The notes: a model not told the origin generated them from the letters alone. DNA of 41,981 nucleotides from a virus (IMGVR_UViG_3300029127_000011), one strand, 5' to 3'; counted from the stretch's first letter, positions 105-39,944 are shown. Made by a program: numbers and translations.

Positions 105-1271
105 ATGGCAACACTGAGATTATATCTAGATACAAGGGTTAAAAGGCAGGATGGTACGTTCTCCATCCGGCTTGCTGTCAACCACCATGGTGGGACTGCC
201 TTCATTTCCCTCAATCAATACTGCAAGAAAGATGAGTGGGATAAAAGGGCTTGCAAGGTGCGAAAGCGTCCGGATCGTGATGCTATCAACGACTTCCTTC
301 TTGACCGTCTGAATTTTTATAATAGAATGATGATGAAGGCGCAATGCAGGGAAACATACCGTGGCGACATTACGGCTAGGGAACTCCGGGACTTAATAAT
401 GCTTGAAGCCGAGCCTGCAAGGGAGAAGGTCGCCCTGCTTCGAGATGGCTTCATTGCCTACGAGGGCAGGAATCTGAAAGAGAACACGATAAACAGATAT
501 AAATATACTTGGGCAAAGATTGAAGCTTTCCTTGGGAAGGAAAAAGCGGCTCTGCTTACATACGATGAGATTAATCGGTCTTGGCTTGAAGATTTCGATG
601 CGTTCATGGCAAAGGAAGGCTTGTCTAGGAACACCAGAGCCAGCAGGATGCTCTGTGTCGCTGCTGTCTTTAATCTGGCGATAGATAATGAGCAGACGAA
701 AAACTACCCTTTCCGCAGGTACAGTCTCCGGCTTGAGACAACGAAAAAGCGAAATTTGTCGGTTGAGGAAATCCGCTCTATCTTCGAAGCTGGTGGTGAT
801 GAGCTGGTCGATATGTTCCTGCTTATGTTCCTGCTGATTGGTATCAATGTGAGTGACTTGTTCGCCTTGACAAATGAGAATATCGTCCGTGGTAGACTGG
901 AATACGACCGGGCGAAGACTGGCAGGCATTACTCCATCCTGCTTCATCCCGAAGCTCTCCGAATCATCGAGAAATACAAAGGTGAAAAGAAGCTGCTTCG
1001 TTTCTCGGAGCATTTCAGGAACGTTGATGTTGCAACGGTCATGATTAATAAGAAACTCGCAAAGGTGCGCCCAGGGCTTACTACGTACTACGCTCGACAT
1101 ACGTGGGCATCCATTGCCTTCAACATTGGTATACAAAAGGACGTGGTGTCGCTTGCGCTGGGTCACTCGTTCGGTGTCCGGGTAACTGATACCTACATCA
1201 ATGCAGACCTATCGAGAGTAGATGAAGCAAACCGCAGGGTTATTGATTACGTGCTATACGACAAAAAATAG
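105..1271 (+). CDS. int: tyrosine recombinase / phage integrase (Bacteroidetes type with N-terminal arm-binding domain)
   Basis: 388-aa ORF. The C-terminus reads YYARHTWAS...LGHSFGVRVTDTYI, matching the RHxxA / LGH / catalytic Tyr boxes of tyrosine recombinases. The N-terminus LRLYLDTRVKRQDGTFSIRL resembles the arm-binding domain. Confidence 0.93.
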   Translation: MATLRLYLDTRVKRQDGTFSIRLAVNHHGGTAFISLNQYCKKDEWDKRACKVRKRPDRDAINDFLLDRLNFYNRMMMKAQCRETYRGDITARELRDLIMLEAEPAREKVALLRDGFIAYEGRNLKENTINRYKYTWAKIEAFLGKEKAALLTYDEINRSWLEDFDAFMAKEGLSRNTRASRMLCVAAVFNLAIDNEQTKNYPFRRYSLRLETTKKRNLSVEEIRSIFEAGGDELVDMFLLMFLLIGINVSDLFALTNENIVRGRLEYDRAKTGRHYSILLHPEALRIIEKYKGEKKLLRFSEHFRNVDVATVMINKKLAKVRPGLTTYYARHTWASIAFNIGIQKDVVSLALGHSFGVRVTDTYINADLSRVDEANRRVIDYVLYDKK

Positions 1272-4764: not shown

Positions 4765-5322
4765 CTATTGAACTCTCTTCTTGATGCGCTCCTTTATCCA
4801 GTTAACCGCAAGAAGGAACAGAAACAGAATCACGCAATCGCCAATGAATAGCCTTATCTTGTGCCATGTGCTCGCTGGCTTCTCCACCTCCTTGGTCTTG
4901 TATCGGTTGACGTAATACTTGACCTTCACGGTGTCGGTCACGAATTTGTAGATGTCGCCCACGATGGTGTCCGTCTTGGTCGTTGTCCTCCATCTGGTAG
5001 TCGTAAGATTATGCCACCGCTCCTTTATAATGGTGTCTCCATTGATGTATACCAGCACGCTGTCCTGCTTGAATATGCTGTCATGCTGCCGTGTGTCCTG
5101 CCAGTGGATCTGTCGCTGGTTCACGCTGTCACGTCTTATACTGGTGTGTACGCTGTCGTGATAAACCGTGTTATTTGCGGCTGTTTTTGCGCAGGAACAG
5201 CCCAAAATCAAAAGTGGGGTAATTATAAGCATTGCGAAAAATAACGCCGCAGAACGCAAATTTCGCCCTTTCCTTGAATTTTCCATACTTTGAAATGTTT
5301 GATTGATGTGTTTATTACGCAA
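4765..5322 (-). CDS. u-spanin-like lysis protein (N-terminal lipoprotein signal + C-terminal TM helix)
   Basis: It has ...AMLIITPLLILGC lipobox-like signal and a C-terminal LFIGDCVILFLFLLAVNWI helix, and sits immediately downstream of the endolysin. The true start may be the internal Met at 5286. Confidence 0.6.
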   Translation of the reverse strand: MRNKHINQTFQSMENSRKGRNLRSAALFFAMLIITPLLILGCSCAKTAANNTVYHDSVHTSIRRDSVNQRQIHWQDTRQHDSIFKQDSVLVYINGDTIIKERWHNLTTTRWRTTTKTDTIVGDIYKFVTDTVKVKYYVNRYKTKEVEKPASTWHKIRLFIGDCVILFLFLLAVNWIKERIKKRVQ

Positions 5323-5851
5323 GCACCTTGATTTTTAAGGCTTCCTTGGCTCGCTTCAAATACTTCTCGCAGGCTGCCAGTCCGTTGTACCCTCCGTTTA
5401 TCTTCCTTCTGATAGCCTTCAAGTTGTCTTGGTCTGCCAACTCATTGCAGCCGAAGGTGTCGAATACCCACATCGAGGATTTCGTTGCTCCCAGAGAACG
5501 CTCCAAAAGTTCGGGACTGCCCACTACATCGAAGCCGCAATAATTGGCATACTTCCGGTAGTTGGCTCGCCCGGTTATCTGAATAAGACCTCTGCCCTTG
5601 TACTTCACGCCATCGCCCTGCTGGGTGTTGCCGAGGTCTTTCCTGCCCTCGTAGGCTCTGCCGCTTGCCAGTTCTTTGGTGTATCTGAGCTCACCGGATT
5701 CGTGCGCTATTTGCGCAAGATAATGAGCCATGCGAAGTTTCGTATTGATGTGGAAATGCTCTGCCCATCCGTTTATGATTGGAAGATAGGTGTCTGCCCT
5801 GCTGCCTGCATTCGGCATTACCTTTAGAAGTTGCGCTCTAGTTATCCTCAT
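5315..5851 (-). CDS. endolysin, glycoside hydrolase family 19 (chitinase-like)
   Basis: Contains YLAQIAHESGELRYTKE and KGRGLIQITGRANY, which are characteristic GH19 motifs. Confidence 0.88.
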   Translation of the reverse strand: MRITRAQLLKVMPNAGSRADTYLPIINGWAEHFHINTKLRMAHYLAQIAHESGELRYTKELASGRAYEGRKDLGNTQQGDGVKYKGRGLIQITGRANYRKYANYCGFDVVGSPELLERSLGATKSSMWVFDTFGCNELADQDNLKAIRRKINGGYNGLAACEKYLKRAKEALKIKVLA

Positions 5852-6293
5852 TGTCTCCTCCTTTCTTCCTTTCTTCCTTCATAATCTCGACAACCGCCTT
5901 CGCAATCTCGTCCTTATTCTCCAGTATTACTTGCATCGTGCGGTCTTGCTTGCGTATCTCTGCCTTCTCGTATGCCTTCTCCCTGATGCTCTTGAACTCA
6001 CACAGAAGCAGATAAACCGTCCAGGCGATGGAGAACATGGGAAATGGAGAGATAACACACGTAGCAACGTCCATAAGCGAAGCGATACCGAATGTCGGGA
6101 AATACTTCTTCGCCTTGTCGCACGTCTTCTTCAACCCGGTTGACGTTCTTGCAACATGCAGTTCCTTCGCCTTCTGTATGCCTGCTATCAGGTCAATTGT
6201 CATCGCTATCAGAATTGTAGCGAAACAGATAAAAATTACTAGGGCGCACAAATAAAGGTGGTGCACCTGAAAATCGTGAAATACTTCGCTCAT
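5838..6293 (-). CDS. holin (Phage_holin_4-like), start trimmed to internal Met
   Basis: Starts MSEVFHDFQ, then TM helices and IDLIAGIQKAKE...STGLKK, a typical holin signature. The longer ORF to 6407 would overlap the upstream gene by 95 nt. Confidence 0.7.
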   Translation of the reverse strand: MSEVFHDFQVHHLYLCALVIFICFATILIAMTIDLIAGIQKAKELHVARTSTGLKKTCDKAKKYFPTFGIASLMDVATCVISPFPMFSIAWTVYLLLCEFKSIREKAYEKAEIRKQDRTMQVILENKDEIAKAVVEIMKEERKKGGDNEDN

Positions 6294-6312
6294 ATCAATT
6301 AATTTTTTTGGT

Positions 6313-6798
6313 TTATTCCAATTTTTCCCAGTCAATGGTAACGCCCTTTCCGATGATGTCTGCCGTCCACCTGCAGAATGCCATACCCTCGTATCCGTCC
6401 GGATCACTGGCTACGGCAATAGCATACTGTACGCAGTCGCTCTCGGTCTTGATTACCTTCGGGTAGAAGTCCGCATAAGCCATATTAGCCAAATAGAGAA
6501 TATCCCCGAGGGTCGTGCCCTTCGAGATTATCTCGTTGTTTGTTGCCAGCCGGATTTCGTCTACCGTCCAACGGTGGCTCGTTCCGTCTACGTTCTTCAT
6601 CTGCTCGCTTGCCTTGATTGCTAGCTGCTTCGTAAAATGGTAGCCGTGCTTGGCAACGTATGCCACGTACCCACTGGCTCCCATGAGTGCCTTTGCTGCC
6701 TTCTCGTATGGCAAGCCGTGGATGATGTCGCTCTCTTGGTGCTGGTGTCGCTCTTCCTCGCTGCCGCAAGAATGGCGCAAAACGATTATTTTCTTCAT
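6313..6798 (-). CDS. hypothetical protein (161 aa)
   Basis: Well-packed ORF upstream of the holin. Confidence 0.75.
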   Translation of the reverse strand: MKKIIVLRHSCGSEEERHQHQESDIIHGLPYEKAAKALMGASGYVAYVAKHGYHFTKQLAIKASEQMKNVDGTSHRWTVDEIRLATNNEIISKGTTLGDILYLANMAYADFYPKVIKTESDCVQYAIAVASDPDGYEGMAFCRWTADIIGKGVTIDWEKLE

Positions 6799-8251: not shown

Positions 8252-8283
8252 CAAAGTTACTCTGATTTTTGGCTCGCTCCAAA
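8252..8283 (-). promoter_or_regulatory. promoter TTTG-N20-TAacTTTG for 7375..8202
   Basis: The plus strand shows caaagtta at 8252-8259 and caaa at 8280-8283. Confidence 0.6.
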
Positions 8284-16634: not shown

Positions 16635-16642
16635 GCAAAGAT
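16635..16642 (-). promoter_or_regulatory. -7 box TAtcTTTG upstream of the head operon
   Basis: The plus strand shows caaagata, 32 nt upstream of the protease start. Confidence 0.5.
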
Positions 16643-16693
16643 ACGATATTTTTCAATATGTTTATCTCGTAAGCAGTTAATTTTTCTAAACAA

Positions 16694-24910: not shown

Positions 24911-26104
24911 TTATCTTTGCCTCAATACGTGCGCCCTAGCCGTTCCATGGCTCGCTACGGATAACTTCTTCAAGGCTACGTATCGTATTGCGTCTATGCC
25001 GTGGTTAAATGCGTCTATAGGCTGGTTCGTTGTCTCTCCATCCCTTGACTTCTTCCACTTGTATTGCTGCATGTTTCCGATGATGCCGTGGCTGCGTCTT
25101 GTTATATTGATGCGGAAACGCTTGAGAATGTCGATTCCGTTGTTGATACTGTCCGCTCCCTTGGTGCTGCCGATTATCCACAGCCCTCGGTTGTGTATCT
25201 CCTGAATGCTCTTAGGCTCTGCCGAATCTGCAATGATAAGGTCTCGTTTCGTCCGTCCTTGTTCCTTGCATCGGTCTGCGATGTCATCGTTCGTCATTCC
25301 GGGCTGGTAGATTTCCTCGTCCACCCATAACTCTCCGTGTGCGAGAATAACGTGCTCCAGAGCAGTTGGGTCGTTTGTGAATCCGAAGTCCATACCCCTG
25401 CAATCCATCTTCCACTCCTCCCTTGGTGGCAGCTTGTCAACGATGCCCCAGTTGGTGAATATAAGTCCGGTTATCTTTCCGGTCAGTCCACGCGCATATA
25501 CTCGCCACAATTCGGGGTCGTCAATCTCTTCAATCTTTTTATGCTCCTGCTCCGTAAGGAATCGGTTGTTTCGGTGGTCGCTCAGGATCAGCCGGCAGTC
25601 ATCCCTGCCGATGATGTTGTTGTGCACCCAGAAGCGTGCGCTTGGATTGTAGTCGATGAATACCTGCTTTCGTGTTCGGATGGCAAGCTGCCAAAACACT
25701 TCGTATGGCACACCGTTCGCCTCGTTAACAAACAGATAGTCTCGCTTACCGTTCTTCGCATCCTGCGCATCTTGGTAACTCTTGAACTCGATGATTGAGC
25801 CGTTCTTTCCTCGGTAGCTGCTGTCGCTCTTGTTGTTCTTGAACCAGTCCAGCAACTCTGCCCTTGTGTGCAGGATGGTGTCGAGGTCTCGCATGGCTCC
25901 CACCTTTAGGTTCGGAAGGTCTTGACCGCACACCGTGATAATTACCCTTGGATGCTCAAAAGAAAGCACTATAAGACGCTGCATAATGGTGTATGTCTTC
26001 CCCGAAGACGTGCCTCCTTGGTTTACTAGAAACCTTGGCTTCACGTCCGCATTCGGGGCATACAGTTCACCAATAACGTCAAATAGTGCCATTCTTACAA
26101 ACAA
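24911..26104 (-). CDS. terL: terminase large subunit
   Basis: Has Walker A NQGGTSSGKTYT and Walker B-like DYLFVNEANG, with a C-terminal nuclease-like region. Confidence 0.9.
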   Translation of the reverse strand: MFVRMALFDVIGELYAPNADVKPRFLVNQGGTSSGKTYTIMQRLIVLSFEHPRVIITVCGQDLPNLKVGAMRDLDTILHTRAELLDWFKNNKSDSSYRGKNGSIIEFKSYQDAQDAKNGKRDYLFVNEANGVPYEVFWQLAIRTRKQVFIDYNPSARFWVHNNIIGRDDCRLILSDHRNNRFLTEQEHKKIEEIDDPELWRVYARGLTGKITGLIFTNWGIVDKLPPREEWKMDCRGMDFGFTNDPTALEHVILAHGELWVDEEIYQPGMTNDDIADRCKEQGRTKRDLIIADSAEPKSIQEIHNRGLWIIGSTKGADSINNGIDILKRFRINITRRSHGIIGNMQQYKWKKSRDGETTNQPIDAFNHGIDAIRYVALKKLSVASHGTARAHVLRQR

Positions 26105-26136
26105 TAAAACTTAAAACAAAATTATGGTAAAAAAAA

Positions 26137-26742
26137 TTATTCTTTATCCAATCCCTCACGCTCGATTACTTCCTGCTCGCTGGATGCGCACTGGTGTCCC
26201 GAGTTGATGTAGCGTACCTCGATGCCGCCTTGGAAGCCTGCGTTCAGGTCGAGCACGACCTTATCCAGTCCGAGCAGCTTGCAGATTTGCGTCTCTGCCT
26301 TGATGATGATGTCGAGGTAGCGTGGTTCTCCGAATCCTCGCTTCTCGGCATCGTACATTATCGCCTTGACGGTCTCGATTGAAATCTGCTTTCCTCGCTC
26401 ATCAAATAAAGGCTGTCCATGCTGGGTTGATTTCTGCAAGTGGTAGTCTTCCTTCGACTTCTCCCAGGCTTCCCAGGCTTCACGTATTACCAGCTTCAAC
26501 CTTGCCACCTCGCTTGTTATCTTTTCGTCCGTGTCGGTCAGTCTCTCTTCCCTCCACTCCTTCAATAACCGCTGAATGTCGCAGTGCGCTTGATTGTATT
26601 TCGGTCTGTCGAGCCGTTTCCTCACCTCTGCCGTGATTTCTCGCTCCGTCCATCCCTTGCGGTATAGGGGTGCGATAATCTGCAGGCGGTTCTCGATGTC
26701 GATTTTCTGCGCTCGATGTTTGTTGTTATTACCTTGTGGCAT
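26137..26742 (-). CDS. putative terminase small subunit
   Basis: Lies immediately upstream of terL, is 201 aa, and has the HTH-like GWTEREITAEVRKRL. Confidence 0.5.
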   Translation of the reverse strand: MPQGNNNKHRAQKIDIENRLQIIAPLYRKGWTEREITAEVRKRLDRPKYNQAHCDIQRLLKEWREERLTDTDEKITSEVARLKLVIREAWEAWEKSKEDYHLQKSTQHGQPLFDERGKQISIETVKAIMYDAEKRGFGEPRYLDIIIKAETQICKLLGLDKVVLDLNAGFQGGIEVRYINSGHQCASSEQEVIEREGLDKE

Positions 26743-26754
26743 ACGATTCTGATT

Positions 26755-27999
26755 TTAAAATTTCGCTCCGTTGTACTTGTATACGATGTTTCCCTCGCTG
26801 TCTCGTTCGTCAGCTGGCAACATTGCCCCTTCGAACATCTTGTATGGCGAGTGCGCTGCCTGCGGATTGTTCCAGCACCACTTCATGTAGTCGGCTGCGC
26901 TCATCGTGTAATACTTCGAGTACTTCTCTCTTGTTCCCAGGTTCATCGCCTTCTCCAGTCTCGCCCTCAAAAGGTTCTCTGCATCCAGCTTGATGTCGCT
27001 CCACCTCACGTATCCCTTGCGCTTGCAAATGTTCAGTGCTTCGCACATCTGCCCCCTGCTGTAGTTCCACGTTGGCGGCAATCCGCAGCAACTTCCGTTG
27101 TGGCAAAGTTCCTTGAAGTGTGCGTCCGATACATAAAAGCGCATTCCCAGCTGGTCGCACAGTTCCTTCATGTTCCTGAAGAACGGTTCTTTGACCTTGC
27201 GGTTCAGTCTCAGATAGCCGGACTGTACGCTGTACTTCTTGTAGAATGCGAGAATGTCGAAACCTGCCATCTTGCTGATGGTAGGCAACAATTCCCTCAA
27301 TGTCGGGCTTCTCGTTTCCAGGCAGAAGAATTCGGTGCTCAAAGCTGTAGCCCCTCTGTTGAATGCTTCCTTGATAAGGTCGAGGTACGTTGGCGTGCTC
27401 ACTCCGATGATGAAGGGTCTCAGTCTCAGCGTTGCACCTCCTGCTCCTGCATTGGCGATGCGCTCGATGGCTTCAAGTCTTGCTTGTGGGCTTTCCACCC
27501 CTCGCTCTATTACTCTAGCCTTCTCTGCATCGCTGGTGATGATTGAGAACTTGAAGTTCCAGTTCTTCTGCCCTCTGATCAAGTCCATATATCGCTCATC
27601 CTTGGTGAACCACGCTCCCTTGGTCGAGAAGCAAAGCGGATAGTCTATATCCTTGAAGAAACGCAAAAGTTCCAGTGTCGTTCCGTACTTCCGTTCGAAG
27701 TTGTCGAACTGGTCGCTCATGCTTCCCCACTGCATAACCTTGCGAGCCTTGATGTATGGCGCAAAGTCTCCACCGTGCTTGTCTGGGTCAATGAACATTC
27801 GTTTGATGCGCTCAACGCTCACGTCTTTAACCTCCTTGTGCAGGTATTCCTTTTTCTTGCTGCCAATACCTCGCTGGTTCTGAGCAAAGCAATACATACA
27901 GCCAAAGCTGCAATTATTGTAAGTGTCAAAAGCCATTGGCATTGAGCAGTCGGGAAACTCGTATGTTATTCTTGGCGTGTTGCCATAATGTTCTGCCAT
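26755..27999 (-). CDS. radical SAM protein (SplB/COG1533-like architecture)
   Basis: Has the CxxxCxxC cluster motif NNCSFGCMYCF near the N-terminus. 414 aa. Confidence 0.85.
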   Translation of the reverse strand: MAEHYGNTPRITYEFPDCSMPMAFDTYNNCSFGCMYCFAQNQRGIGSKKKEYLHKEVKDVSVERIKRMFIDPDKHGGDFAPYIKARKVMQWGSMSDQFDNFERKYGTTLELLRFFKDIDYPLCFSTKGAWFTKDERYMDLIRGQKNWNFKFSIITSDAEKARVIERGVESPQARLEAIERIANAGAGGATLRLRPFIIGVSTPTYLDLIKEAFNRGATALSTEFFCLETRSPTLRELLPTISKMAGFDILAFYKKYSVQSGYLRLNRKVKEPFFRNMKELCDQLGMRFYVSDAHFKELCHNGSCCGLPPTWNYSRGQMCEALNICKRKGYVRWSDIKLDAENLLRARLEKAMNLGTREKYSKYYTMSAADYMKWCWNNPQAAHSPYKMFEGAMLPADERDSEGNIVYKYNGAKF

Positions 28000-28003
28000 A
28001 TCC

Positions 28004-28534
28004 TCATGAATTTATTTTGTTGATGATAAAGTCTGCGATTTGGTCTGCTGTCTGCTCCGTGGTGTCTATCGCTACAACGTCACACCCCGCAGTTTGCCAT
28101 TTCTTTGCCGAATGTGCCGATTCTCGCTGTCCCCGGATAATATCCTTGCTCAACGTCTTGTTCGACCGTTCTGCGAGCCTTTTTTGGATTTCTTCGAGTG
28201 GTGCGTATAAGAAGATTACAATCTGTCTGTCCGCATTGAACATTGCGTGCGTCAAGTTCGGACCCCAGCATTTTAGTCTCATCCCTTCGCAAATGATACA
28301 GTCGGTGCTCTCAAGTGCCTTCTTCACGATGTCACGAAGTATGGTCGTACCGTTCAGATTGTCAACACCTCCGTACTTAACATCGTATCGCCCTGCAAAT
28401 GCAACTCCATCCCTGGTGCTGCTTATTCCGTTCGAATAGCTTTCGATTCCACCAAAGCTTTCTATCAGCTTTCGGACAACGGTGCTCTTTCCGCTGGCGT
28501 TGGTTCCAATTATGAAAACACAAGTCTTTCTCAT
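28004..28534 (-). CDS. P-loop NTPase / kinase-like protein (176 aa)
   Basis: Has Walker A IIGTNASGKSTV at the N-terminus and is the size of a small nucleotide or polynucleotide kinase. Confidence 0.8.
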   Translation of the reverse strand: MRKTCVFIIGTNASGKSTVVRKLIESFGGIESYSNGISSTRDGVAFAGRYDVKYGGVDNLNGTTILRDIVKKALESTDCIICEGMRLKCWGPNLTHAMFNADRQIVIFLYAPLEEIQKRLAERSNKTLSKDIIRGQRESAHSAKKWQTAGCDVVAIDTTEQTADQIADFIINKINS

Positions 28535-28639
28535 ATTCGAGTTATTTTTGTTAAATTTCGTCTCTGCCGGATTGAATTGTTCCGAGCGGATAGTTTATCC
28601 ATTTCAAGAGTTTCTCCGACTTAAACGCGAAAATTCCGA

Positions 28640-29281
28640 CTATTCGGGTTTTTCTTTGAGTTCTTCCACGTCAAAGTTGCGCTTCTCGATTGCGTCAAGT
28701 CCCAGCATATCTGCCACGGCTTGTGCGTCCTCGCTGCGGTATACGATGATGATGCGCTGTTCTTCGTCCTCTGCTGGTTCGTAGGTCGTGGCTTCCTGCT
28801 GGATTTCCCAGGGGTTCAATCCCCATCGCTGCATATCGTCCACATCAAATGCTCCCTTTAGCTTCTCTTCGTCCCAGCTGCCAAAATAGACGTTATCCTT
28901 GATGATGAACTCGTCCGTCTCTTCGTCGGATAGGCTGTCAGCAATAACGACCTCGACCTTTGGTTCTGCCTTCCACTTCTCCCAGTGGCTGCAAAGCTGC
29001 TGCTTCTCTCCATCGGTCAGTTTCACGGCAACGGCTTCAATCGCTCCCTTGATAGCTTCGTCTTCCATCTGCTCGATGTTGAGCAGGGCACGGAAGCGCA
29101 TGTTACCTCCGAGGATAACTCGGTTCTCATTACAGACGATTGGTCTCATCTTTAACATCTTCGGAAACGTCAGAATACTCTCAACGAGTTTCTGCATCTG
29201 CTGTGGCTCAATGCTGCGTGGGTTGTCTTGGTTCTCCACCAGGTCGTGCAGGTTGATGTTCTCGATTTTATTCTTCTCCAT
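28640..29281 (-). CDS. ParB N-terminal-domain (ParB/Srx-like) protein, paralog 2
   Basis: Contains ENQDNPRSIEPQQMQKLVESI...RPIV...LGGNMRFRAL. The C-terminus IIKDNVYFGSWDEEKL matches its paralog. Confidence 0.8.
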   Translation of the reverse strand: MEKNKIENINLHDLVENQDNPRSIEPQQMQKLVESILTFPKMLKMRPIVCNENRVILGGNMRFRALLNIEQMEDEAIKGAIEAVAVKLTDGEKQQLCSHWEKWKAEPKVEVVIADSLSDEETDEFIIKDNVYFGSWDEEKLKGAFDVDDMQRWGLNPWEIQQEATTYEPAEDEEQRIIIVYRSEDAQAVADMLGLDAIEKRNFDVEELKEKPE

Positions 29282-30041
29282 TGTCTTCCTCCTTTCCTTC
29301 TTGTCTTGGTTTCAGTTCATCAAAGTTCCAGACGATGCGGTCAATATGATCAACTCCCAGAAGCTTGGCAAGGAATGGCTCATCGGCTGGCTTGTAGTGA
29401 ATGATTAAGTTCTCACGTGGCAAAACGCCATCGCCCATTATCGTTGGCAAGTCGTCAGGGGTTAAGTCTTGACCTTCGATTTCAGGAGGTAGTTCCCCTG
29501 CGAATGGGTCGCCCTCTTGGTCGTCCTTGCCTTTCTTCTTGCACTTGCTGGTGCTGCTTGTTTCCACTGGTGCTGGGTTCCAGACTGGCATACCCCAGTT
29601 CTGAAGCTGTGCGCTGTCCCATCGGTTCGCAAGGTCGTTGAAGTCCCAGTTACCGAAGGATAGGTTGTCTTTAATCATAAACTCCTGCTTCTGTGCTTCT
29701 GTCAAGTCTGATGCGCTCACCACGGTAACTGTTGGCTGTTGCTGCCATCCCTGCCAGTACTCCATCAATGCGGATTGCTCATCATCGGAAAGACGCTGCT
29801 CTGCATCCAGCTTCACTTGAATGCCTGCTTCGTCCATCGTGACAATGTGCTGCAAGGCTTTCAGTCTCATGTTGCCACCCAATGCATGGAAGGTCTCATC
29901 AATAACAATCGGGCGCAGGGTCAACATTCGTGGGAACACGATGATGCTCTGCACAAGCTTCTGAAAGTTCGCTTGGCTTATCTCTCTTGGGTTCGCTTCG
30001 TTCTCGCTGACCCTCGATAGTGCGATTTCTTCTGTTTTCAT
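29268..30041 (-). CDS. ParB N-terminal-domain (ParB/Srx-like) protein, paralog 1
   Basis: Contains ENEANPREISQANFQKLVQSI...RPIV...LGGNMRLKAL and MIKDNLSFGNWDFNDL. No methyltransferase domain is attached. Confidence 0.8.
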   Translation of the reverse strand: MKTEEIALSRVSENEANPREISQANFQKLVQSIIVFPRMLTLRPIVIDETFHALGGNMRLKALQHIVTMDEAGIQVKLDAEQRLSDDEQSALMEYWQGWQQQPTVTVVSASDLTEAQKQEFMIKDNLSFGNWDFNDLANRWDSAQLQNWGMPVWNPAPVETSSTSKCKKKGKDDQEGDPFAGELPPEIEGQDLTPDDLPTIMGDGVLPRENLIIHYKPADEPFLAKLLGVDHIDRIVWNFDELKPRQEGKEEDNGEE

Positions 30042-30091
30042 TTTCTTCTTGTTTTAAGTTCGAAATACTGCTTATTTGATAAACACTGGCG

Positions 30092-30099
30092 CAAAGATA
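30092..30099 (-). promoter_or_regulatory. -7 box TAtcTTTG upstream of the ParB/rSAM/terminase operon
   Basis: The plus strand shows caaagata, about 50 nt upstream of the 30041 start. Confidence 0.5.
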
Positions 30100-31596: not shown

Positions 31597-32853
31597 CTAG
31601 AAAGGTAAGTCTACGAAGTCGTAGTCAGTGAAGGCAAAATTCTCGTGACCCTCGTATGGGATGCATTGAGTGAAGTCTGCTGCCTTTCCGCTATGTAAAG
31701 GCAAGACGTTGTATCTAGATGCAAAATCCTCTCCACGGTCACGGACAAAGAACGCTGGAAGCCACTTGAATCCTTTTCCGCACCTTACCAGCACCTTGTC
31801 AAAGGTCTTGAAGGCTGGCTGCTCCTTCGCTTCCTTCTCTTTCTTCCAGATGGCATAATGCTTGTTGAACAGTTCTACTTCGAGTTCTGTTGCTTCCCTG
31901 AGTTCCTTGTGCAAACTGATATTCAGATAGAAGGTTTCATTGGTCACGAAATGCTCGTTCTCGATGTCGTACTGCTCTCCGAATGTCAGCGTGCCATCAC
32001 TTTCGTTCTTGCCGATAACCTTACCGATAACTGCCACCTTTCCGTCCTCGTCTTCATCGTTGAAAACATAGAGTTTGCCGACTTCAAACGCTGGCTTCAA
32101 GTTCACAATCATTTTCTTGTCAGCATCCCAAGCCTTGCCTTCCTCTGCTAGAGCTTCAAAGAGCAGCTGCTTTTCTGAGTCAGTTGCAAATCTATACCCT
32201 TCAGCCGATACACGATTATCGTTAAACAATAATCCAAACGTTTCATCTATAGAAACATAGAAATAAAGGGTATGCTTATAAATCCTTCGACATATTGCAA
32301 CTGATTTTCCATATAACACTATATCTCCATCCTTGAACTCAGGCTGTTTTTCAATCTCCAAGGTCTCACGATTGAGTTTACCGCCCAAAAATTTCTCGAT
32401 AGTGTTGATGTAGGTCTGAGCAGAATCTTTGTTATCTTCAATATGATAGTCTTGTACATTCTGCATTTTCAAACAAGATACATGTCTCTTTTTACTTACA
32501 CTAATCCAGTGTTTACCTTCAAATGTAGTATAATCATTTTTTGAAAAACAATTAAAGATTATATGGCTGTCGCTATCATTGCTAACCAGCACGTCTCCCT
32601 TCTTAAAGAACTTGCTCCAATCTCTCATTTCTTTCGAAGGGAAGAGCAGAGGTTCTCCTTCTTTATCGATTTTTCCGTTCTTGTCGAAAAAGTGTTCTCT
32701 TCCAGCTTCGTCCTCAGTCCAGATTGCTTTCGCACTGTCCTTGTCGTTTGCCATTCCACTGAACCACACCCTTCCACATTTTGACGTGTATAACTCTGTG
32801 CCATACTCTACGTCCTTCAAAATCTCATAAATATCAATATCTTTCTGTTCCAT
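31597..32853 (-). CDS. hypothetical protein (418 aa) with about four internal repeats beginning (K/Q)PxFKxGDxV
   Basis: Repeat starts are FPSKEMRDWSKFFKKGDVLV, KQPEFKDGDIVLY, LKPAFEVGKLYVF and EQPAFKTFDKVLV. An AAACATTCAG box lies 3 nt before the ATG. Confidence 0.8.
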   Translation of the reverse strand: MEQKDIDIYEILKDVEYGTELYTSKCGRVWFSGMANDKDSAKAIWTEDEAGREHFFDKNGKIDKEGEPLLFPSKEMRDWSKFFKKGDVLVSNDSDSHIIFNCFSKNDYTTFEGKHWISVSKKRHVSCLKMQNVQDYHIEDNKDSAQTYINTIEKFLGGKLNRETLEIEKQPEFKDGDIVLYGKSVAICRRIYKHTLYFYVSIDETFGLLFNDNRVSAEGYRFATDSEKQLLFEALAEEGKAWDADKKMIVNLKPAFEVGKLYVFNDEDEDGKVAVIGKVIGKNESDGTLTFGEQYDIENEHFVTNETFYLNISLHKELREATELEVELFNKHYAIWKKEKEAKEQPAFKTFDKVLVRCGKGFKWLPAFFVRDRGEDFASRYNVLPLHSGKAADFTQCIPYEGHENFAFTDYDFVDLPF

Positions 32854-39936: not shown

Positions 39937-39944
39937 TAACTTTG
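39937..39944 (+). promoter_or_regulatory. -7 box TAacTTTG upstream of the membrane-protein operon
   Basis: Exact TAnnTTTG about 15 nt before the 39959 ATG, which implies a very short leader. Confidence 0.4.

Follow-up and report, generated by a model that had tools for sequence, protein, structure and literature searches.

Here we describe a four-gene cassette carried by a temperate phage of Segatella copri, as read from a viral DNA stretch of 41,981 nucleotides (IMGVR_UViG_3300029127_000011; the whole stretch is hereafter called the window), in which two ParB-like proteins, a P-loop kinase and a radical S-adenosylmethionine (rSAM) enzyme are encoded directly ahead of the terminase genes. Gene fusions, synteny and family identities indicate that this cassette is very probably a post-replicative thymidine hypermodification module. 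More tentatively, the rSAM enzyme is proposed as an O2-independent hydroxylase or activator of the thymine C5-methyl group on double-stranded DNA, acting with a heterodimer of the ParB-like proteins, which would make it an anaerobic counterpart of the TET/JBP dioxygenases and a third route to 5-hydroxymethyluracil (5hmU).

The four genes lie on the minus strand, in the region (26755-30099) and order given in an initial annotation of this DNA: ParB-like A (29268-30041, 257 amino acids), ParB-like B (28640-29281, 213 amino acids), the P-loop kinase (28004-28534, 176 amino acids, Walker A motif GTNASGKST) and the rSAM enzyme (26755-27999, 414 amino acids, with the CxxxCxxC motif as C30-x3-C34-x2-C37). 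As also described there, they run into the genes of a terS-like (small-terminase-like) protein (26137-26742, minus strand, 201 amino acids) and of the large terminase subunit TerL (24911-26104, minus strand), the latter having Terminase_3 and Terminase_3C Pfam matches. The terS-like protein is named from position and synteny only, having no Pfam match and an uninformative PHROG 645 label, and its gene is the conserved immediate downstream neighbour of the rSAM gene. The ParB-A and ParB-B reading frames overlap by 14 nucleotides, which suggests translational coupling, and the following gaps measure 105 (ParB-B/kinase), 4 (kinase/rSAM), 12 (rSAM/terS) and 32 nucleotides (terS/TerL), the first being the sole interruption in a tightly packed gene set. 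Altogether, the six genes form one tight minus-strand operon.

The rSAM enzyme belongs to the radical SAM superfamily, as indicated by its cluster motif (C30, C34 and C37 are invariant in 42/42 sequences), by a PF04055 score that barely passes the gathering cutoff (31.5 versus 29.5 bits) and by the Foldseek matches of its AF2 model (pLDDT 95), the top ones all being rSAM enzymes. The best PDB structural matches correspond to spore photoproduct lyase (SPL; E 6e-10 to 7e-9, 18% identity), the next ones (~5e-6) being about four orders of magnitude weaker, and the modelled fold suggests an enzyme directed to DNA. No sequence-level link to SPL was found in PDB searches with either the single sequence or the family profile, and assignment to SPL proper was rejected, the likeness being structural only. 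Single-sequence PDB searches with the rSAM enzyme, the kinase and ParB-B returned just noise, and a viral structure library gave no rSAM match above a TM-score of 0.54 and 14% identity. Scores fall below the NCBIfam cutoffs for PA0069 (NF033668, 56.3 versus 360 bits) and Rv2578c (NF038135, 40.7 versus 430 bits), and a separate family within the clan of these two proteins appears the best description. The enzyme founds a large family that is known from metagenomes only. Databases hold 2,217 relatives, the sole name they bear, where any is given, being 'DNA repair photolyase' (JGI, nr), and an exhaustive search defines 1,187 family representatives at 50% identity.

Besides the cluster ligands, further cysteines are conserved in the family, namely C18, C304 and C305 (each in 38/42 sequences), C226 (33/42) and C281 (29/42), and some may serve as ligands of an auxiliary cluster or as a catalytic thiol. 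Inteins were also observed to interrupt the rSAM sequence in several members (P0125, P0138, P0153, P0154, P0218, P0219, P0232, P0233 and L209:6726-9179), several of them with LAGLIDADG homing endonuclease domains and, in several cases, inserted near the N-terminal cluster motif, at about residues 36-50.

Fusions of the rSAM domain link this family to DNA-base kinases and glycosyltransferases. A Victivallis contig (L230) encodes in a single open reading frame (ORF) an rSAM domain and HMUDK_HMUD1, a kinase of 5-hydroxymethyldeoxyuridine (5-hmdU) in DNA (49 bits versus a cutoff of 27), while a single protein of 894 amino acids (P0130) is organized as Ploopntkinase3-rSAM-TAGT, TAGT being a TET-associated glycosyltransferase. 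At least 8 of the best 150 representatives are fusions with TAGT, which may stand before or after the rSAM domain, and an rSAM-FkbM methyltransferase fusion is also found (P0131).

Gene neighbourhoods were then compared in 127 loci, whose ORFs were called, clustered and labelled with profiles built for the purpose, and which were dereplicated to 73 at <90% rSAM identity; upstream counts refer to the 61 dereplicated loci with at least 3 upstream genes, and the TerL count to the 64 with enough downstream sequence. The dereplicated loci come from gut and rumen anaerobes and span phyla. The broad alignment of 42 sequences lacked any segment of sufficient conservation for locus queries; those with a single sequence or with 12 sequences mostly returned near-identical loci, the diversity coming from a scan of genome contigs. 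Pfam identified clusters of amino-acid:DNA transferase (ADDT), GNAT, cytidylyltransferase and SAM synthetase, and a cluster of ~250 amino acids adjoining rSAM was recognized as TAGT (hhalign E 9e-48); the ADDT homologs listed are close relatives only. Co-occurrence across relatives, put forward in the initial annotation as a check on the set, links the rSAM gene with ParB in 54/61 loci (two or more ParBs in 17/61) and with a kinase in 28/61. ADDT is present in 21/61, TAGT in 20/61 and GNAT in 16/61, at least one among kinase, TAGT and ADDT appears in 48/61, and just one locus has ADDT without a kinase. TerL lies no more than 4 genes downstream of rSAM in 52/64 loci.

The commonest cassette combines ADDT, GNAT and kinase (13 loci), followed by those with TAGT only (9), kinase only (8), a HAD/APH-like protein with cytidylyltransferase and TAGT (7), and GNAT only (2). 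Thus, rSAM and ParB stay constant across cassettes while the decorating enzymes vary. The ParB-ParB-kinase-rSAM order of the window recurs in Selenomonas ruminantium (L213) and in an Atopobiaceae-binned contig (L203), whose rSAM enzymes are ~45-56% identical to that of the window. In 9/61 loci a SAM synthetase gene (MetK) adjoins the cassette, either directly upstream of ParB or downstream of rSAM (L121:840-1877, L241:6543-7574 and 7 more), consistent with heavy use of SAM. Another cluster seen in these neighbourhoods (c15; L001:5741-6808 and homologs) contains proteins of 355 amino acids with no Pfam match, in which an N-terminal HAD-like DxDxT and a C-terminal HGDxxxxN kinase-like motif can be read by eye. 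It always accompanies TAGT, in 7/10 loci together with cytidylyltransferase, and the combination suggests that these phages produce a sugar or alcohol in activated form with which DNA is decorated.

Regarding the ParB-like proteins, ParB-A and ParB-B are by sequence true paralogs (34% identity, E 2e-43). The shared GGNMR and IKDNxxFGxWD motifs noted earlier were found in both copies, while the claim of DNPR in both did not hold, copy A reading ANPR and NPR being what they have in common. Both match the N-terminal ~170 residues of PHROG 498, a family of ParB-methyltransferase fusions (E 4e-18 and 2.5e-20), the similarity being confined to that region, in agreement with the annotated lack of a methyltransferase domain in either; further matches are to PHROG 620, 940 and 8071 (E 2.3e-19 to 1.9e-7). 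For ParB-B, the top 29 Foldseek matches of its model are all Noc, ParB, KorB or sulfiredoxin, the best E being only 9e-3 and the pLDDT 69. The window ParB proteins themselves have no Pfam match at E <= 0.01; a protein 89% identical to ParB-B (P0350) has a precomputed PF02195 match, and another, 88% identical and an A/B hybrid (P0359), is named 'ParB N-terminal domain-containing protein' at NCBI. The listed homologs of ParB-B are close relatives only. NPR (Box I), GGNMR (Box II) and the fold of the ParB-B model place both proteins in the ParB/Srx N-terminal (CTPase-fold) group. Neither Pfam nor PHROG revealed a helix-turn-helix or ParB DNA-binding domain in either protein, and no ParA-type ATPase is among the Pfam matches of the window (61 ORFs scanned at E <= 1e-3, with 25 of the 26 matched families considered, a scope common to all Pfam results for the window given below); a canonical ParABS partition ParB was rejected on these two grounds.

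In a neighbour-joining tree, the two ParB copies of Clostridia-type and Selenomonas loci fall into two separate orthologous clades, and independent tandem duplications occurred in other lineages, a pattern of sequence descent that suggests joint action of the pair. Hybrid ParBs were also observed (P0359, P0366 and P0390), with 35-80 N-terminal residues resembling ParB-A and the rest ParB-B, one of them being an NCBI Segatella copri entry; they suggest either recombination between the tandem paralogs, by which some strains would be left with a single ParB gene, or assembly artefacts.

The window kinase seems to be of the polynucleotide or 5-hmdU-DNA-kinase type, judging from profile matches of its family. 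Among 29 syntenic homologs, 4 reach HMUDK_HMUD1 (PF18748, 1.3e-10) and 4 reach Ploopntkinase3 (PF18751, 1.1e-10), the kinase subgroups are mutually homologous (hhalign 96-99.9%), and the profile of the family aligns over its full length with the polynucleotide kinase domain of CthPnkp. The best PHROG match of the window kinase is phrog_800 (E 1e-13), labelled 'terminase small subunit', a label that probably stems from annotation by gene adjacency rather than from a role in packaging.

Characterised homologs of all the recognised accessory enzymes require DNA that carries a 5-hydroxymethyl or 5-phosphomethyl pyrimidine (PMC8989533; Pfam descriptions), and two sources of 5-hmdU have been named, dUMP hydroxymethylase and TET_JBP (Lee et al., NAR 2021, PMC8989533). 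The Pfam scan of the window found no TET_JBP dioxygenase, dUMP hydroxymethylase (thymidylate-synthase-like), methyltransferase, glycosyltransferase or TGT family, bearing out at Pfam level the statement that no hydroxymethylase, TGT or methyltransferase partner is visible; ADDT and pyridoxal-phosphate (PLP) enzymes are likewise missing from it. In relatives, no TET_JBP or Thymidylat_synt annotation lies within +/-10 kb of the cassette, nor was either found for 93 other neighbour proteins among the best 25 of 52 families. Queuosine or 7-deazaguanine chemistry was also considered and rejected, no QueC/D/E-type or TGT family being among those listed for the window ORFs. Full-text literature searches of incomplete coverage returned no account in which rSAM and ParB form such a core or in which an rSAM enzyme leads to 5hmU.

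The priming step is the most parsimonious role for rSAM, the invariant enzyme of these cassettes. It would consist in radical abstraction from the thymine methyl, and the carbon-centred radical so formed would be the one known from SPL and also invoked in the proposed mechanism of gp53 of phage M6. The full mechanism, in which a ParB-assisted rSAM enzyme activates or hydroxylates the thymine methyl group without O2 and a kinase follows, is put forward with the chances about evenly balanced. Certain thymine dioxygenases of phages depend on a ParB-like activator when acting on double-stranded DNA (O'Toole et al., PNAS 2026, PMC13229309), and, by analogy with these ParB-dependent dioxygenases (ParB176), the ParB paralogs, probably as a heterodimer, would bring the rSAM enzyme onto double-stranded phage DNA or keep it there. 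The 5'-deoxyadenosyl radical would then take a hydrogen from the thymine C5-methyl, and the resulting 5-methylene radical would be oxidised and captured, most simply by water, yielding 5-hydroxymethyluracil or an equivalent. Phosphorylation of the hydroxymethyl group by the P-loop kinase would give 5-phosphomethyldeoxyuridine (5-PmdU), which could itself be the end product or serve as a leaving group in attack by a further nucleophile; no transferase of the kind that normally uses it appears among the Pfam matches of the window. Co-transcription with terS and TerL would ensure that DNA is marked before packaging and so protected from restriction on entering the next host.

Several observations weigh against this proposal. 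The one phage rSAM enzyme of the clan that has been characterised, M6 gp53, does not prime the pathway; it is an isomerase whose tailoring step comes after those of the kinase and the transferase (PMC8989533). No SPASM, twitch or other recognised electron-accepting module was detected in the window rSAM enzyme, so that the proposed oxidation step has no recognised acceptor. The window kinase scores 22.1 bits with HMUD2 (PF18747), below the cutoff of 25, and 11/61 loci carry no recognised accessory enzyme. The TET_JBP negative in relatives covers Pfam matches within +/-10 kb and the best 25 of 52 families, not whole genomes. In phages with a C5 methylase nearby, 5-methylcytosine (5mC) may be an alternative substrate. 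Finally, DNA and protein searches of a 50,697-record phage collection returned one partial relative and one weak match only, the rSAM family being absent from it save for that weak match.

The main rival also takes the cassette for a thymidine hypermodification module, with rSAM as a gp53-like tailoring isomerase or lyase that acts on an adduct, the 5-hydroxymethyl group coming from an unrecognised source. It gains from the SPL-like character and remote homology of M6 gp53 (hhalign 97%, 18% identity over 235 columns with the window rSAM family), and from the parallel between the commonest cassette (ADDT, kinase, GNAT and rSAM) and the transferase, kinase, acetyltransferase and flavin lyase of PaMx11. 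Against it, rSAM is retained in loci without a transferase (those with only a kinase, TAGT or GNAT, and those with no accessory) and is directly fused to kinase or TAGT, while neither a 5hmU source (in the window, within +/-10 kb or in the listed neighbour families) nor a PLP partner was seen; we consider it unlikely. A membership of rSAM among glycinyl-thymine isomerases of the gp53 type was itself rejected, the homology being remote only and the window having no ADDT or PLP enzyme. Alternatively, rSAM might install another primary mark for the kinase, glycosyltransferase or transferase, either by 5mC oxidation or as a radical adduct at another base or at the sugar. The conserved non-cluster cysteines recall covalent radical methyl-transfer chemistry, of which RlmN and Cfr are examples, and some relatives have a C5 methylase near the cassette: in a widespread Bacteroidaceae phage (L246-L248), a ParB-ADDT-kinase-GNAT-rSAM cassette has, ~3.5 kb upstream of it, the gene of a C5 cytosine DNA methylase of 534 amino acids (4931-6535). 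On the contrary, the window has no methyltransferase among its Pfam matches, C5 methylase accounts for just 1/93 neighbour clusters, and homologs of HMUDK and ADDT are characterised only on 5-hmdU and 5-PmdU (PMC8989533), which leaves this option improbable.

A role in packaging, in which the ParBs would be accessories of the pac site or of terS and the other two proteins structural or regulatory adjuncts, draws on the very tight synteny with terS and TerL and on the label of the best PHROG match of the kinase. Such a role leaves unexplained the fusions to DNA-base kinases and glycosyltransferases and the methyltransferase swap of a close relative described below, and terminases adjoin 5mYOX pathways too, so that we regard it as very improbable. 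A further alternative would be an SPL-type DNA repair enzyme, or a set working as a prophage-encoded defence system: the JGI and nr name and the SPL-like fold speak for repair, whereas the sequence-level search found no SPL match, NCBIfam scores are far under their cutoffs, a UV spore photoproduct would be implausible in gut phage DNA and the surroundings are those of modification enzymes. PADLOC 2.0 gave no match for either ParB, rSAM or terS, and generic P-loop matches only for the kinase. Repair or defence is therefore given hardly any credence.

The earlier proposal of a DNA-modification or anti-restriction module outside described pathways is in this way supported and narrowed to thymidine hypermodification by the fusions or adjacency of rSAM to HMUDK_HMUD1, Ploopntkinase3, ADDT and TAGT, and it is further backed by the frequent ParB linkage, by the 5mYOX precedent (PMC13229309) and by the slot occupied in a relative. 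This relative, MT836763 (L245), is a fragment of a phage from human feces that shares 93% identity with the window over TerL-terS and has no ParB-kinase-rSAM cassette; upstream of terS it carries instead a 168-amino-acid ORF and a methyltransferase-like gene of 292 amino acids with an SPPY motif (PDB 2zie, E 1.3e-5; MT836763.1 6191-8821 versus window 26137-30041). Since a methyltransferase-like gene replaces the cassette there, the slot holds interchangeable DNA-modification genes.

The rSAM gene is 100% identical at protein level in the chromosome of Segatella copri HDE04 (NZ_CP152346.1, 1932306-1949547), and near-identical copies occur in dozens of IMG/VR contigs, mostly of 21-44 kb, and in many human gut viromes. 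Other relatives come from rumen and gut Bacteroidales, Clostridia, Selenomonas and Victivallales, and such anaerobic gut and rumen hosts fit an O2-independent reaction. The window represents a temperate phage: among its genes are those of an integrase of Bacteroidota type, an exonuclease resembling YqaJ/RecE, a DnaD-like replication protein and a RuvC-like resolvase, and its Pfam scan revealed neither a DNA polymerase nor genes of the nucleotide pool. The tyrosine integrase (Arm-DNA-bind_5 and Phage_int_SAM_5; 105-1271, plus strand) lies at one end of the window, which is therefore probably a near-complete prophage. Upstream of the resolvase, an ORF of 418 amino acids (31597-32853, minus strand) has no significant Pfam or PHROG match and recurs in related phages, its homologs forming cluster 23 or 28 in two clustering runs.

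Ahead of the operon, the promoter-like box of the initial annotation (TATCTTTG, 30092-30099, minus strand) was found in an intergenic region, 51 nucleotides upstream of the ParB-A start, and fits TAnnTTTG, the Bacteroidota -7 consensus. Matches to this consensus in the window are at chance level in total (27 observed versus 26.2 expected); 15/27 of them are intergenic, while intergenic DNA makes up 8.6% of the window (binomial p = 6e-10, uncorrected for AT-richness). Similar boxes at 26117-26124 (minus strand), 8252-8259, 16636-16643 and 39937-39944 stand 15-50 nucleotides upstream of gene starts, the first of them 25 nucleotides ahead of the called TerL start, and TerL may have its own promoter besides operon transcription. 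A sigma-70 promoter scan was set aside as not relevant to a Bacteroidota host.

Post-replicative hypermodification of thymine and 5mC in phages is now explained by O2-needing iron/2-oxoglutarate dioxygenases. Phages whose hosts are strict anaerobes make up most of the human gut virome and would have to rely on another chemistry. The rSAM family described here is large, and it is linked with ParB as well as with all known classes of enzymes that decorate 5-hydroxymethyl pyrimidines. If it does make the hydroxymethyl handle, it would represent a new DNA-directed radical SAM reaction and a natural source of 5hmU in DNA in addition to dUMP hydroxymethylase and 5mYOX, seeding a wide and unexplored range of thymidine hypermodifications among phages that infect gut and rumen anaerobes and accounting for the way such phages escape restriction. 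It would also widen the newly found role of the ParB fold as partner of DNA-modifying enzymes, a partner that in these cassettes is commonly a pair of paralogs, and might provide an O2-independent enzymatic tool for site-selective functionalisation of thymine.

Among known systems, 5mYOX (TET/JBP) pathways share with the cassette a short ParB-like partner without an evident DNA-binding domain, a post-replicative mode with no phage DNA polymerase or nucleotide-pool genes, and the accessories (TAGT, kinases, APH, HAD, GNAT and amino-acid transferases), with terminase genes often adjoining (PMC13229309). The neighbourhoods reported for 5mYOX are indeed rich in glycosyltransferases, ParBs, terminases, kinases, APH, HAD and GNAT (PMC13229309). 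On the contrary, the TET/JBP oxidase is absent here and an SPL-like rSAM stands in its place, ParB linkage is much tighter (54/61 loci, whereas 27% has been reported for 5mYOX), ParB frequently comes as two tandem paralogs, and the hosts are anaerobes. By comparison with the published neighbourhoods, rSAM thus appears to occupy the position that TET/JBP has in other phages; membership in a 5mYOX pathway was rejected, no TET_JBP having been found despite the ParB partner and accessory enzymes.

The clusters of M6, PaMx11, ViI and SP10 (PMC8989533) share with the relatives homologous kinase and ADDT families and GNAT tailoring; M6 further has an SPL-like rSAM, gp53, whose substrates are thymine derivatives in DNA and which has been described as a glycinyl-thymine isomerase (PMC8989533). 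They differ in that 5-hmdU is made before replication by a dUMP hydroxymethylase and the phages have their own polymerase; moreover, gp53 needs a glycine adduct and a PLP partner, and the window is without transferase, PLP enzyme or hydroxymethylase. A tblastn search of the phage collection with the window rSAM gave no match in M6; the gp53 gene was located in the genome of that phage for the comparison.

SPL (PDB 4FHC and 4RH0), the best structural match, shares the CxxxCxYC motif with a tyrosine before the third cysteine, and its own radical chemistry takes place at the thymine C5-methylene of DNA. It differs in showing no detectable sequence similarity, in lacking the ~110 additional C-terminal residues and the extra cysteines C18, C304 and C305 of the window enzyme, and in context, that of the latter being modification and not repair. 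The PHROG 498 ParB-methyltransferase fusions have the homologous N-terminal region with GGNMR and IKDNxxFGxWD and occupy the same slot beside terminase genes, whereas the window ParBs have no methyltransferase domain and their catalytic partner is a separate rSAM gene. Precedents for aerobic and anaerobic enzyme pairs, such as the one proposed here for TET/JBP and rSAM, are provided by HemF and HemN, and by AcsF and BchE, respectively.

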